From Deltaproteobacteria bacterium (GTDB taxonomy: Bacteria; Desulfobacterota; Binatia; HRBIN30; JACQVA1), in assembly GCA_016210005.1 (NCBI GenBank), contig JACQVA010000127.1, positions 835 to 64,834 of the forward strand: a stretch of 64,000 nucleotides of DNA. Direction: 5' to 3'. Under the pieces are notes generated by a model, which did not search any database, was not told where the DNA came from, and saw nothing but the letters and a program-made list of their open reading frames with translations. Shown piece by piece: positions 2,789 to 63,326 of the stretch. Numbering within the stretch: position 1 is the stretch's first letter; every line of letters begins with the position of its first letter. The translations under genes and the position numbers were made by a program.

Positions 2789-3085
2789 TCACACCGACGT
2801 GACAGATGGCTGTGTACCGCGAAAGGCCTTGGGGTTGAGGCTGTGCTTCTTGAGCAGGCGGTACAGGGTGCCGCGAGGAAGCTGCGCCTCGCGCGCCGCA
2901 GCGGCAACGTCCCCGCAGTGGCGCTCAAGCAGGCCCGCAATAAACTCTCGTTCAAACGCAGCTAATCGCTGCATTCGCAAGGCAAAGAAGCCTCCTGGCC
3001 GTTGGCCTGAGTGGCTGGGATCATTCGCGGCTGGCGCTTGATTACCGGCAAGGGAAACATCATCGAGGATCATCGCCATACTCAC
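2789..3085 (-). CDS. Standalone Fis-type HTH DNA-binding mini-protein (98 aa), a paralog of the C-terminus of the NtrC-family activator at 5631-7019
   Basis: The mini-protein reads GGFFALRMQRLAAFEREFIAGLLERHCGDVAAAAREAQLPRGTLYRLLKKHSLNPKAFR. The activator C-terminus reads GGFFQLRAQRVMAFEKEYLAELLERWQGDVSRAAREARLPRGTLYRLLKKHDLNADDFR. Upstream there is no room for a receiver or AAA+ domain. Confidence 0.5.
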   Translation of the reverse strand: MSMAMILDDVSLAGNQAPAANDPSHSGQRPGGFFALRMQRLAAFEREFIAGLLERHCGDVAAAAREAQLPRGTLYRLLKKHSLNPKAFRGTQPSVTSV

Positions 3086-3093
3086 TTGGGCAA

Positions 3094-3112
3094 GCTTGGG
3101 TCACTTCCAAGC
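3094..3112. promoter_or_regulatory. Palindrome GCTTGG-N7-CCAAGC with flanking GCAAGC repeats, a candidate operator
   Basis: The inverted repeat lies in the divergent intergenic region between the mini-HTH gene and the response-regulator gene. GCAAGC / GCTTGG units repeat four times across 3085-3130. Confidence 0.3.
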
Positions 3113-3147
3113 CGCAAGCTCCGTGCCGAGCAGTTGCACGCGATGAC

Positions 3148-3164
3148 AGGGCACGACGGTTGCT
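3148..3164 (+). promoter_or_regulatory. Sigma-54 (-24/-12) promoter for the RR-HK-activator operon
   Basis: aGGGCACG-ACGG-TTGCT has exact consensus spacing. It lies about 95 nt upstream of the ATG at 3260. Confidence 0.55.
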
Positions 3165-3259
3165 GCCACGACGTGCAAAAGGCGCCCGACGAAGCCTGAA
3201 GGTTAGGTTGCCAGGGCGAGGGCGGGTCTATCTCCGCTCGCTCGTGACGAGAGGGAACG

Positions 3260-3781: not shown

Positions 3782-5630
3782 ATGTGGCGCCTATTCATCA
3801 AGCGTGGAGTTAGCGAGGGTGAGGCCGGCGGCATTGCCCCCGAGGCCCACTGGTTCATTTCAACCCGTTGGGCCGCCGTAGCGGTCGGGACCATCGTGTC
3901 CCTGGTGGCAGGCGCCTACGGCGTGCTGCCGCCGGACGTCTTGGCGCGCCTGCTCATTACCATCGCCGGCTCGGCAGGATTGAACATCGGCTTCGCCATC
4001 ATGGCGGGCCACGAAGCGTGCAAGCCCTACCTGCTGGCGCTCCAGATGTACGCCGATCTCGCGATCCTGACGATCCTGCTGCACCTCACCGGCGGGGTCG
4101 AGAATCCGCTGTGCTTATCGCTCCTGATCCACGTGGCCCTCGGCGGTATCCTGCTCTCACGGCGGCAATGCTACCTGGTCGCCACCGCTGCCAGCGTGAT
4201 GTTCATGCTGATGGCGTGGGGCGAATGGTCGGACCTCTTGCACCACTATTTCGTTCCTGCCTTGCCGCACGGAGAGCCGGGGTGGAAGGCCGATGCCGCG
4301 CAAAACACTTTCTATGTGGCTGGCCTCACCAGCCTGCAAACGGCACTGTTCTTCTTCGTGGCCTACATCGTCACCACTTTGGTAGAGCGCGCGCGCTTCC
4401 AAGAGCGCCGGCTCGAAGCCCTGGCGGCGCAGGCGCGGGCCGAGCGCCGACTACTGGAGCAGGCCCTCCAAACCACCGGTACAGCGCTACGAGTCAGCGG
4501 CTCGAACCTGCGCTCTCGCTGGATGAATGGCCGCTGGCAAGAATGGTTCGGCACCGGCGATTCCGGGGGCTTGCCGCTTGACCGGGGTTCGGACCGGCTC
4601 CGCAGTGGCCTCGCAACCGCGGGCGGCATGCCCGTCGCCGCCGAGATCTCGCAAGCGATTGAGTGCCGGAGCGTGGCGCCGGACGGGATTCGCGTTACTG
4701 AAGTCGTCTTGCCGTCGGGAAAAGCAGCCCCGGGCAATGCCCGCAGCGGTCGGCATGACCGCGTCTTTCGTGTCACAATCGCTCCGTTAACCAGCGGCGA
4801 CGGCCCGGCCGGTGAGTTCGTCGAGTTGGCGCAGGAGATCACCGAGCAGAAGCAGGCTGAAGCCCAAATGATGCGCGCCGCCAAGCTGGCGGCGGTGGGT
4901 GAACTGGCCGGCCATGTCGCCCACGAGGTCAACAACCCCATCGCCATCATCAGCGCCAAGGGGCGATTGCTCTTGCAAGACCACCGCGACGAGATGTCGG
5001 CCAAGACCGCGGCAGAGGTCAACAAGATCGTGGAATTTGCCGACCGCGTCGCCCGCATCGCCCAGGGGCTGCTTTCCTATTGCCGTCCGTCCGCCGCCGT
5101 TCGCACTCCGATCAGCATCCACGCGCCCATTCGTAAGGCCCTGTCGATGATCGAGGAGCGCGCAACCAGCGGCGGCGTGCGCATCGACGAGCGTTTCGGC
5201 CAGGCGAGGCCGACGATCCTCGCCAACAGCTCCGAGATGGAGGAGATCTTTCTCAACCTTTTTCTCAACGCCCTCGATGCCATGCCCGCCGGCGGCGTGC
5301 TGACCATCGCCACGGCCGGCCCGGACGACCACCGCGGTGAGCCGGCGGCTCCGGCCACACTCGCGCCGGACGGCGCCGCGGCGCCGTCCGTTAGCGTGGT
5401 CATCGAAGACACCGGCCACGGCATTGCCGAGGAGGTTCGCAACGAGATCTTCGAGCCTTTCTTCACCACCAAGGAAGCCGGACGCGGTACTGGTCTCGGC
5501 CTGGCGATCTGTCTCGGCATTGTCCGCAATCATGGCGGCACCATTGCGGTCGACAGCGAAGTTGGACGCGGCACCAGGTTCACGGTCAAGCTTCCGGCCC
5601 ACATGCCGAACGAGAGCGTGGATACGCAGT

Positions 5631-60987: not shown

Positions 60988-61865
60988 CGCCGCCTCGACT
61001 CTGCCGCCAAGTGTTCGAGCACCACCTCGCGCATAACCGAGCGCGGCGCCGTCTTGCCGGTCCACAACTCGAACTGAATCACGGCCTGATTGACGAACAT
61101 CTCCACCCCGGAGATGGTCTTGCGCCCCTGGCGCTCGGCATCAGCGAGCAGCTTGGTCTTGAGCGGGTTGTAGACGATGTCCATCACCGCCAGCTCGCGG
61201 TGCAAGAGCGACTCGGGCACCGCGCTGGCGTCGGTGTCAGGGTGCATACCCACCGGGGTGCAATTTATGAGCACCTGGCTTTCCGCCAGTCGTGCCGCCA
61301 AGGTCTTCGGCTCGAGCAACGCACCGCTGGCCTTGACTCCGGTCTTGGTTACCAGGTCGTTCGTCAGCGCCCGCAGCTCAGGCTCAATGACGCCGAGCAG
61401 GAAGAGTGCCCCGGCTTTGGCCTCGGCCAGGGTAAAGGCAATCGCCCGCGCCGCGCCACCCGAGCCCAGGATCGTTACCGATCTTCCCGCCACCTCGACA
61501 CCGGCGTCGCTGAGCGCCTTGAGTGCACCGGGGCCGTCGCTTCCAAAACCTTTGAGCCGGCCGCCGTCGTTGACGACCGTGTTGACCGAACCGATACGGC
61601 GGTCAACCGCAGCCACCTCGTCCAAGTGCGGAATGATCGACACTTTGTGAGGGATGGTGACGCTCAGGCCGCGGAAGTTCTCGAACGCGCGCATGCCCGC
61701 CACCGCCGCGCCGACGTCCTCGACCCGAAAAGCGACGTAGACGTAATCGAGGTTCAACTCGGCAAAGGCACGATTGTGGATCGCCGGCGACATCGAATGG
61801 GCGATCGGGTTGCCGATCACCGCACACAGTGTGGTGCTCGGGGTAATGTCAGTGATAGCTCTCAT
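60984..61865 (-). CDS. aroE: Shikimate dehydrogenase
   Basis: LCAVIGNPIAHSMSPAIHN, GLSVTIPHK and the NADP-binding LGSGGAARAIAF are present. Confidence 0.85.
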   Translation of the reverse strand: MRAITDITPSTTLCAVIGNPIAHSMSPAIHNRAFAELNLDYVYVAFRVEDVGAAVAGMRAFENFRGLSVTIPHKVSIIPHLDEVAAVDRRIGSVNTVVNDGGRLKGFGSDGPGALKALSDAGVEVAGRSVTILGSGGAARAIAFTLAEAKAGALFLLGVIEPELRALTNDLVTKTGVKASGALLEPKTLAARLAESQVLINCTPVGMHPDTDASAVPESLLHRELAVMDIVYNPLKTKLLADAERQGRKTISGVEMFVNQAVIQFELWTGKTAPRSVMREVVLEHLAAESRRR

Positions 61866-61974
61866 CTGGATTCAACCTCAACGCAAGCGCACGCGCGGCC
61901 CCTTAGCATCAGGCGGCGCACTATAGCCACCCTGCCGCCCAACACCAAGCGGCGTCAGGCTCAAGCTGCTTAGC

Positions 61975-62237
61975 GGGTGTGCGACAAATCTGTGGGTAAC
62001 GTGCAGCCGACCGGGCAAATCCTCACCAGTCTGACAGTACTGTGTACTGTCAGGCCGAGGCCCACGGCCGAAAGGGACGCAATTTGTCATTCCCGCGAAA
62101 GCGGGAATCCACGGCACCGGCTCGCTACGACCCGCCAAACGCCAAACTGGATTCCCGCTTTCGCGGGAATGACGGCCTTTCGCGGGAATGACGGCCATAA
62201 CACCGAACCACGTTACCCACAAATTTGTCGCGCACCC
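61975..62237. repeat. 263-bp structured intergenic element bounded by 29-bp imperfect terminal inverted repeats, with nested hairpins and a short direct repeat (MITE / REP-like or structured RNA)
   Basis: The left end is gggtgtgcgacaaatctgtgggtaacgtg. The RC of the right end is gggtgcgcgacaaatttgtgggtaacgtg (27 of 29 identical). Internal hairpins are ctgacagtac/gtactgtcag, attcccgc-gaaa-gcgggaat and attcccgc-tttc-gcgggaat. The direct repeat gcgggaatgacggcc occurs twice. Confidence 0.6.
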
Positions 62238-62245
62238 GTGCTTAG

Positions 62246-62893
62246 CTATGTCGGTGCTGTCGGGCTCAGCCGTGTGATGCGCTGGTCGGCGCGCACGATC
62301 AAGCAGCGGCCGGGCCGGGGCCGGTCACGCTGAGCTAGCTGGGGAAAGCTGGCGGCGTACCACAGCATGGTGACAACGTCCCACGGCGGCGGGCTCGCGC
62401 CCGTGCCGGCGGCGATGTTGTGCACGCAGCGTAGCGGCCGCGGCGGCGCGGCGAGTCCCGCTGCCAGTGCCGTCTCCCAGTCGCGGACGAAGAGCTTCAG
62501 CGGCTGCCCCGGCGCGCGTGCGCCCAGCATTATGATCTTCCTGCCCGCGCCGGCGGCGTCGCCGGCGATCACGATCTTTTCCTCGACCGGGAAGAAGACG
62601 TTCGCCGCCTTGTCCATGAAGGTCGTTTCGTCGCGGCGAATAGGCTCAGCCGCCGGCGACTCGAGGTAGGCCAGCACGCCTGCGAGGGCAGCGCGGTCGC
62701 GGTACCAGAACTCCGTCAGGCAATCGAAGCCGGCAGGCCCGCCGGCGATCTCTTCGGCGACGTGGTTGCGTACATAGCCGCTGAACTGATCGAAATGCCG
62801 CAAGGCGAGCGGGGCGTGCACCTCTTCATAGTGCCGCCGGAACTCGGCGCGAGCGAGCTCATGGCGGCGGACGATGAGGGCGATGATCTTCAC
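62246..62893 (-). CDS. Tandem EthD-domain protein (dimeric alpha+beta barrel)
   Basis: The first domain reads VKIIALIVRRHELARAEFRRHYEEVHAPLAL...GYVRNHV...EFWYRDRAAL. A second, more degenerate copy follows. The start is taken internally to avoid overlap with the B12 gene. Confidence 0.5.
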   Translation of the reverse strand: MKIIALIVRRHELARAEFRRHYEEVHAPLALRHFDQFSGYVRNHVAEEIAGGPAGFDCLTEFWYRDRAALAGVLAYLESPAAEPIRRDETTFMDKAANVFFPVEEKIVIAGDAAGAGRKIIMLGARAPGQPLKLFVRDWETALAAGLAAPPRPLRCVHNIAAGTGASPPPWDVVTMLWYAASFPQLAQRDRPRPGRCLIVRADQRITRLSPTAPT

Positions 62894-62906
62894 CGTCGTC
62901 CGCTCC

Positions 62907-63326
62907 CTAACCTTGGCGGTGTTCGGCGTACCAGTTGCGGATGTAGGCGACGATGTCACCGGTGGGCGTGCCCATGGTGAAGATCTCTTGCACGCCGCCG
63001 CGCCTGAGCGCGCGGGCGTCTTCTTCAGGAATAACGCCGCCGCCGAGCACCAGCTTGTCGCCTGCGCCTTGCGCCCGCAGCAACTCGACCACCCGGGGGA
63101 AGTGGCGCATGTGAGCTGCCGACAGGCTGCTCAGTCCGACCACGTCCACGTCTTCCTCGATCGCGGTCTTGACCACCATCTCCGGCGTCTGCTTGAGGCC
63201 ACTGAAGATCACCTCCATGCCGGCGTCGCGCAGCGCCGCGGCGATCACCGTGACGCCGATGGTATGGCTGTCGAGTCCGAGCTTGGCCAGCAGCACGCGC
63301 ACTCGCTTGTCACCGTCCTTGGTCAT
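62907..63326 (-). CDS. Cobalamin (B12)-binding domain protein, the small subunit of a split acyl-CoA mutase
   Basis: [30 protein letters not shown] carries the DxHxxG B12 motif. VVGLSSLS is present. Confidence 0.8.

Follow-up and report, generated by a model that had tools for sequence, protein, structure and literature searches.

A 263-bp intergenic element with ISKra4-type ends and NTS/SRM hairpins, probably a decayed nuclease-gene cassette

Within the window, the whole 64,000-nt stretch of contig JACQVA010000127.1 analysed here, we examined a 263-bp intergenic element at positions 61975-62237, between aroE and a gene for an EthD-domain protein. The neighbouring genes are those that an earlier note on this DNA had named. 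On one side lie aroE, whose protein matches PF08501 and PF18317, and a shikimate kinase gene; on the other lie the genes for the EthD-domain protein, a B12-binding domain and methylmalonyl-CoA mutase. The genes flanking the element on both sides are all on the minus strand. The open reading frames (ORFs) of 118 and 114 aa that run across the element, taken for artefacts in the note, have no homologues among 5.8 billion proteins and should not be annotated as genes.

The architecture described in the note was recovered in full. An inverted-repeat search found terminal inverted repeats (TIRs) of 29 nt with 2 mismatches at 61975-62003 and 62209-62237 (matches expected by chance, 0.00 in 100 shuffles), which become 30 nt at 93% once 61974 and 62238 are counted in. 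All three proposed hairpins were present, two of them built on common attcccgc/gcgggaat arms with GAAA and TTTC loops. By chance, 0.04 such ATTCCCGC/GCGGGAAT hairpins would be expected, and the two form a 26-nt perfect inverted pair (62086-62111 and 62148-62173, 36 nt apart). The direct repeat gcgggaatgacggcc, which does occur twice, is part of a perfect 19-bp tandem duplication (62158-62176 and 62177-62195). Folding of the element gave -86.7 kcal/mol for DNA (z = -11.3) and -161.6 kcal/mol for the minus-strand RNA (z = -11.6), and in either case 0 of 200 shuffles equalled the value. The features are given below by position, with the assignments (IS, insertion sequence; NTS/SRM, a hairpin family; ssn, a nuclease gene) that the following paragraphs develop.

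61966-61974, no strand: left target-site duplication ctgcttagc, abutting the left end, with an 8/9 match to 62238-62246
61975-62003, no strand: left TIR, GGGTGTGCGACAAATCTGTGGGTAACGTG, resembling the conserved IS end GGGTGTGCGACAAATTTGTGGGTAA of loci L007, L033, L081 and others
62031-62053, no strand: small subterminal hairpin CTGACAGTAC-TGT-GTACTGTCAG, with a 10-bp stem and a 3-nt loop
62085-62112, plus strand: NTS/SRM hairpin copy 1, TGTCATTCCCGCGAAAGCGGGAATCCAC, 26/28 to the NTS consensus
62089-62108: hairpin ATTCCCGC-GAAA-GCGGGAAT within copy 1, followed by CCA
62113-62146, no strand: 34-nt spacer separating the two 28-nt sites (the 26-nt arms are 36 nt apart), the putative scar of the ssn deletion
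62147-62174, minus strand: NTS/SRM hairpin copy 2, CGTCATTCCCGCGAAAGCGGGAATCCAG on the minus strand, 28/28 to the NTS consensus
62151-62170: hairpin ATTCCCGC-TTTC-GCGGGAAT within copy 2
62177-62195, minus strand: half NTS/SRM made up of tag, 5' arm and loop, reading GCCGTCATTCCCGCGAAAG on that strand; it is unit two of the 19-bp duplication
62209-62237, no strand: right TIR, GGGTGCGCGACAAATTTGTGGGTAACGTG read inward, of the same end type as the left TIR
62238-62246, no strand: right target-site duplication gtgcttagc, abutting the right end

Target-site duplications, which the note had suggested looking for, were found: a 9-bp direct repeat, ctgcttagc/gtgcttagc, abuts both ends with 8/9 positions in common. 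Among the matches listed, a duplication of at least 8/9 was seen in 15 of 50 non-redundant elements of the family and in 0 of 142 shifted-flank controls. Perfect 9-bp duplications flank the full-length copies L033 and L081 and the miniature inverted-repeat transposable elements (MITEs) L059, L079, L085 and L102. The EthD-domain ORF (62246-62959) was left intact, because the right-hand duplication overlaps its stop codon by a single base: CTA, which on the minus strand reads as the stop TAG, begins at position 62246.

Of the identities that the note had considered, a MITE describes the TIR-bounded shell well, by its IS-matching ends, the transposase family that goes with them and the 9-bp duplication; judged by these features, the shell derives from an ISKra4-family IS and is non-autonomous. 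The window ends agree at 23-24 of 25 positions with GGGTGTGCGACAAATTTGTGGGTAA in L007, L033, L081 and other copies of about 1.85 kb, in which this is the well-conserved end, beside the transposase C-terminus, and conservation is lower at the opposite end. In the window element both ends are of the conserved type. On the Binatia contig of L007, the TIR and an imperfect partner end bound a unit of 1,859 bp, and the unit codes for a DUF6788 ORF and a 412-aa ORF matching NF033572 ('ISKra4 family transposase') with 310.1 bits; the corresponding score in L081 is 310.8 bits, against a cut-off of 205 bits.

A scan of metagenomes revealed at least 120 loci with the TIR core. Among the matches listed, about 27 come from one sample (Ga0213870), paired ends delimit about 16 full-length copies of about 1850 bp as well as MITE size classes of about 142, 163, 243-248 and 262 bp, and a transposase homologue is encoded at 46 of 127 family loci. 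The IS of about 1.85 kb was found in Binatia-labelled metagenome-assembled genomes (MAGs) and in metagenomes of soil, sediment and groundwater, and shorter MITEs with the same ends in Acidobacteriota MAGs. A species-representative collection (one genome per species) held the TIR core at 7 loci, on 3 contigs of one Terriglobia MAG, which together hold several short paired-end copies, in 2 further Acidobacteriota MAGs, in 1 Binatia MAG and in 1 Clostridia MAG; with 19 bases specified, a search of 596 Gb should yield about 4 chance matches. The Clostridia match (20 nt, L004 4567-4586, CALXND010000007.1) was rejected as probably due to chance, as it has no partner end; it sits in AT-rich DNA beside tRNA-like sequence. 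Neither the TIR core nor the subfamily-specific junction had a match in IMG/VR, indicating that the family of ISKra4-type ends is not phage-borne in that collection.

Some further observations concern these IS and MITE copies. At its divergent end the IS has TTGAC(A/T) immediately inward of the repeat, a possible promoter element, and the asymmetry of the ends is exemplified by L033 (350-2198), L081 (18-1865) and L009 (1165-3014). In full-length copies the DUF6788 ORF precedes and overlaps the transposase ORF. In L075, two MITE copies of about 244 bp (2986-3230 and 4682-4924) have flanks that are mutually reverse-complementary, pointing to an inversion between the two or to a larger duplication in inverted orientation.

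For the core of the element, the REP-like unit envisaged in the note (REP, repetitive extragenic palindrome) proved apt: by the fit to their consensus, the attcccgc/gcgggaat hairpins are NTS/SRM motifs, of the type of the CGTC-1 REPs and of dRS3 of Neisseria. The published NTS consensus, CGTCATTCCCGCGMAVGCGGGAATCYRG in PMC11893778, is matched at every one of its 28 positions by the minus-strand copy (62147-62174) and at 26 of 28 by the plus-strand copy (62085-62112). The fit includes the oriented non-palindromic flanks, and the TGTC tag of copy 1 is a variant allowed by Di Nocera 2013. In each hairpin the stem is 8 bp long and starts with AT, the loop has 4 nt, the tail is CCA and the tag is CGTC or TGTC. 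No further SRM was found in the 64-kb window beyond the element. When the element was compared with plasmid records by BLAST, only the hairpin-spacer-hairpin part was matched (in Azospirillum, Sphingopyxis, Neisseria and others) and the element ends never were, and the exact hairpin 20-mer is present in at least 120 IMG/VR contigs.

Motifs of this kind have been described under several names. dRS3, ATTCCC-N8-GGGAAT, is a unit of the Neisseria intergenic mosaic elements (NIMEs; PMC1797815), and CGTC-1 REPs are mostly inverted dimers with 'no dedicated transposase' (Di Nocera, De Gregorio, Rocco 2013, PMC3733652). According to Chenal 2025 (PMC11893778), SsnA is a 94-aa GIY-YIG nuclease that binds NTS only as single-stranded DNA (ssDNA) and cuts a few nucleotides upstream of it; in N. 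meningitidis, NTS and SsnA together reduce transformation by NTS-bearing DNA about 5-fold, and the biochemistry given there covers the Neisseria SsnA and a few homologues. The label NIME was tried for the window element and rejected; the pattern fits, but the name denotes Neisseria-specific arrays.

Shell and core were found together, with a gene between the hairpins, in a set of sister elements. Of some 40 short elements with paired ends among the matches listed, none but L095 and the window element contains SRMs. These two share 89% identity over 228 aligned nt and have both hairpins at equivalent places, and in L095 a 96-aa GIY-YIG ORF (PF01541, 56.5 bits) lies exactly between the two hairpins, its protein being 61% identical to the ssnA orthologue of Neisseria gonorrhoeae. 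A protein search with this ORF returned more than 4,000 homologues. Six of the closest (86-89% identity) were examined, and all six lie in the same TIR-bounded backbone, in the order TIR, about 55 nt, SRM, 13 nt, ssn, about 30 nt, inverted SRM, small hairpin (CTGATAGTAC...TACTGTCAG) and TIR. Intact cassettes of 544-560 bp were found at no fewer than 12 different genomic sites (L285 898-1456, L286 895-1454, L291 498-1049, L293 905-1448, L297 920-1468, L095 288-833 and others). The 9-bp duplication is perfect in L286 (9/9, gctccagca/gctccagca) and, given a 1-nt boundary shift, in L293-296 (9/9, cagggctgg), and nearly so in L297 (8/9, cagactccc/cagactccg). Because the same backbone recurs with 9-bp duplications at this many sites, the cassette appears to move as a unit by ISKra4-type transposition, and we take it to be a mobile insertion cassette (MIC) in IS nomenclature. 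The source labels include one MAG each of NC10 and Anaerolineales, together with a metagenome in which the Binatia aroE relative also occurs.

The window copy is 86-89% identical to the intact cassettes. Compared with L285 (89% over 256 nt), it is without element positions of about 91-397 (about 307 bp), in which the ssn ORF of L285 occupies 104-394, so that relative to both L095 and L285 the missing segment is the ssn ORF with a few nucleotides on each side. Next to 62112, the spacer aligns to the sequence that in L095 and L285 follows ssn on its 3' side. The ssn-carrying cassettes keep the small subterminal hairpin in the corresponding position, as with CTGATAGTACCACTACTGTCAG in L285, and a degenerate version of the half-site (TCATTGGCGGAAATGCC in L285) is found at the equivalent position in relatives. 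All sister cassettes examined hold ssn, and the window holds none. From these alignments we infer that the window copy is a cassette from which ssn was deleted; loss is preferred since at least 12 gene-carrying sites stand against one gene-less copy. The hairpins most likely arrived with the cassette, because they are the only SRMs in the 64 kb.

The element is therefore best read as a composite, very probably a decayed non-autonomous ISKra4-type cassette with an NTS/SRM core and its ssn lost. In the history that we propose, an ISKra4-family DDE transposase acting in trans would have recognised the 29-nt ends and inserted the cassette into the interval from the EthD-domain stop codon to the region upstream of aroE, duplicating 9 bp; the role of such a transposase is deduced from the ends and the duplication. 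The ancestral cargo would have been ssn, for a 96-aa SsnA-family GIY-YIG nuclease, lying between SRM/NTS hairpins that serve as ssDNA recognition sites, and its later loss would have left two inverted hairpins 36 nt apart and the duplicated half-site. If the host has ssn elsewhere, the hairpins could, by analogy, be cut when the locus is single-stranded.

The window copy is now probably immobile and a neutral relic. Its probable neutrality is argued from the absence of an Rfam match, of a terminator or promoter consensus, and of any counterpart in the nearest relatives. A permissive scan of Rfam 15 gave at best 16.8 bits (gathering score 35, E = 0.7), matching palindromes only, and no intrinsic terminator or promoter consensus was found on either strand at 61800-62400. 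The note had also allowed for a single-copy spacer conserved in relatives; the element is instead absent from the aroE relatives and recurs elsewhere in many contexts.

Several points weigh against the proposed history. The duplication at the window element is imperfect (8/9), and L095 and several other copies have no target duplication. No empty site was found, the nearest aroE relatives being different upstream, and for this reason the insertion is argued from the duplication. Past the ends of about 29 nt, no similarity could be detected between the window element and the interior of the full-length IS, so the element's derivation from the IS is argued from the ends and the length of the duplication. 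Neither a transposase homologue nor an ssn gene was found within the 64-kb window, where both ends and hairpins are single-copy, as the note had reported. The choice of ssn loss over later gain is an argument from parsimony, and the taxonomic labels of MAGs are unreliable for mobile DNA.

An identical aroE protein carries the label 'MAG: Deltaproteobacteria bacterium'. The aroE relatives nearest to the window (87% amino-acid identity) are labelled Candidatus Binatia and have a divergent TRAM methyltransferase gene upstream in place of the EthD and mutase genes. Homology to them ends about 18 nt before the aroE start, leaving no homologous spacer (window 61866-61974 compared with L275 2256-2500), and the exact EthD-domain protein was not on record in the protein search made for this purpose. 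As reconstructed from the window, the hypothetical empty site would read CTCAAG[C/G]TGCTTAGCTATGTCGG. In an independent Logan assembly of the source reads, SRR12113390, a contig with the same aroE stops inside the left TIR (L001 1-27 = window 62001-61975); a break inside the TIR is expected at a repeat and gives a hint of further copies of the ends in that sample. The element sits upstream of the likely aroE promoter. A TATAGT about 60 nt upstream of the aroE start, between the element and the gene, is common to the Binatia relatives and may be the -10 element of aroE.

The best surviving rival, which we nevertheless regard as unlikely, is that the element has been co-opted as an RNA or DNA structure acting in cis, for example as an mRNA-stabilising or attenuating hairpin in the EthD-aroE interval or as an Ssn-cleavable mark by which incoming ssDNA would recombine less at the locus. 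The minus-strand RNA whose strong fold is given above is the sense strand of both flanking genes, REPs have been reported to stabilise upstream mRNA, and one of the window SRMs is a perfect match to the NTS that, according to PMC11893778, lowers transformation about 5-fold with SsnA in N. meningitidis. On the other hand, neither an Rfam family nor a terminator- or promoter-like site was found for the element, it is absent in the nearest relatives, the window has no ssn, and inheritance from the cassette explains the structure fully.

It is much less probable that the hairpin pair entered separately, as a REPIN-like SRM doublet inserted into a plain ISKra4-type MITE that was already in place. 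Such an entry would accord with the habit of SRM/CGTC REPs, which are mostly inverted dimers scattered in genomes, with the hairpin-spacer-hairpin units of about 88 bp without TIRs in Azospirillum, Sphingopyxis and Neisseria, and with the finding that most MITE classes of the ISKra4-end family have no SRM (among the matches listed). However, more than 12 elements at unrelated sites, 86-89% identical to the window copy, carry both SRMs at the same backbone positions, indicating that the hairpins predate the window insertion, and no other SRM in the 64-kb window points to an active SRM population.

A stand-alone structured small RNA or riboswitch gene, the regulatory RNA considered in the note, is barely credible: strong predicted folding and an intergenic location speak for it, but the best Rfam matches (E = 0.7-10) score below half the gathering scores and trace palindromes only, promoter and terminator consensus were not found, the spacer is absent in the nearest aroE relatives, and related elements lie in either orientation at many genomically unrelated places, frequently with a protein gene mid-element.

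The hairpins, the nuclease and the MITE/MIC-type elements are all of known kinds, and the window element is a new member of them. Like MITEs and MICs, it is short, has TIRs that match a transposase-coding IS, a 9-bp duplication of fixed length and no transposase of its own, and it belongs to a family with many copies and size classes across genomes and with relatives that carry a passenger gene between IS ends. Unlike them, both of its ends copy the conserved IS end, its interior did not arise by deletion from the IS body, and the passenger, lost in the window copy, codes for an ssDNA nuclease and comes with the recognition hairpins of that nuclease.

The likeness to the NTS/SRM-SsnA system of PMC11893778 lies in the 28/28 and 26/28 hairpins and in the SRM-ssn-SRM order of the sister cassettes, with a single-domain 96-aa GIY-YIG protein. 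That paper calls NTS-ssnA-NTS IS-like and possibly domesticated and, in its accessible text, does not place it within the ends of a DDE transposon, whereas here the module would be the cargo of an ISKra4-type cassette with 9-bp duplications, and the window copy is without ssn. The host also appears SRM-poor (one locus in 64 kb), in contrast to the SRM-rich genomes stressed there.

With the CGTC-1 REPs (PMC3733652), the window hairpins share the tag, the 8-bp stem from AT, the 4-nt loop, the CCA tail and the inverted-dimer arrangement, and the core likewise fits the ATTCCC-N8-GGGAAT of dRS3, dRS3-spacer-dRS3 being the NIME unit (PMC1797815). The host is a Binatia-like soil bacterium rather than a proteobacterium, however, and it holds one isolated dimer, not arrays, which is enclosed by unrelated transposon ends. 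In the REP/REPIN-RAYT systems, too, the repeat is a hairpin whose tag stays unpaired, the doublets are inverted, and repeats of the system surround its small, single-copy nuclease gene. Membership in them was rejected, as the tag is CGTC or TGTC and not GTAG, and the protein is a GIY-YIG nuclease and not an HUH/Y1 (IS200/IS605-like) transposase.

What the relatives of the window element show is an SsnA-type gene packaged with its two recognition hairpins in DDE-transposon ends, at many sites. An SRM-ssn-SRM unit inside such ends was not found in the literature searched. On balance, and with confidence only a little above even, we favour the view that the 544-560-bp cassette is a dedicated Ssn/SRM vehicle, moved by an ISKra4-type transposase within genomes and, by horizontal transfer, across phyla (to judge from the labels NC10, Anaerolineales and Binatia). 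If this is true, new genomes would be seeded with SRMs by a cassette vehicle, and a first concrete transposition mechanism would be at hand for a CGTC REP/NTS lineage. The window copy would then be a spent shell, and a group II intron, described below, would make use of that hairpin as a third layer. The finding bears on how CGTC REPs/NTS spread without a transposase of their own, a question raised in PMC3733652, and on the question, posed in PMC11893778, as to whether NTS-ssnA-NTS has ever been, or still is, a mobile element. Natural pairs of Ssn and hairpin from uncultured soil phyla are also a resource for ssDNA nuclease tools.

Two arrangements were observed at cassette loci in addition to those described. 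In L022, a full-length IS (855-2725) and a cassette-type element starting at 2742 lie end to end, 16 bp apart; the same arrangement in L057 and L109 represents one locus recovered from three metagenomes. At several loci a group II intron, with an ORF matching RVT_1 and GIIM, occupies the SRM tail, at GCGGGAATC^CAAGGCCC on the NTS strand (L288 about 640-1604, compared with L291 about 920-960; L022 3037-3065; L287, L289, L290, L292 and L109). L288, with the intron, and L291, without it, share their left flank and so are filled and empty alleles, and the 5' intron junction in L022 reads ...GCGGGAATC|GTGCGCC. The group II intron appears to home to the SRM hairpin.

The association of hairpin and nuclease was also approached from the protein side, with 22 IMG/VR loci coding for ssn homologues that were taken regardless of hairpins. 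The tag GTCAT[TC]CC lies close to the gene in 21 of these 22 loci, with 57 occurrences in 8.3 kb of flanks and 5 in the 51.6 kb elsewhere. The hairpin stems covary, and the GTCA tag and CCAG tail are constant. This link is not new and reproduces the published Ssn/NTS/SRM association (2025).

N. gonorrhoeae (L271, NZ_CP119140.1 1881687-1883156) has a single ssnA orthologue in a dense dRS3/NTS array. The orthologue is unannotated in that 2.17-Mb record, which is a chromosome filed as a plasmid. On plasmid AZO_p3 of Azospirillum lipoferum 4B (L272, NC_016623.1 255374-255992), ssn lies between two hairpin dimers, and this unit of hairpin dimer, ssn and hairpin dimer splits sufB and sufC, which are normally in one operon.

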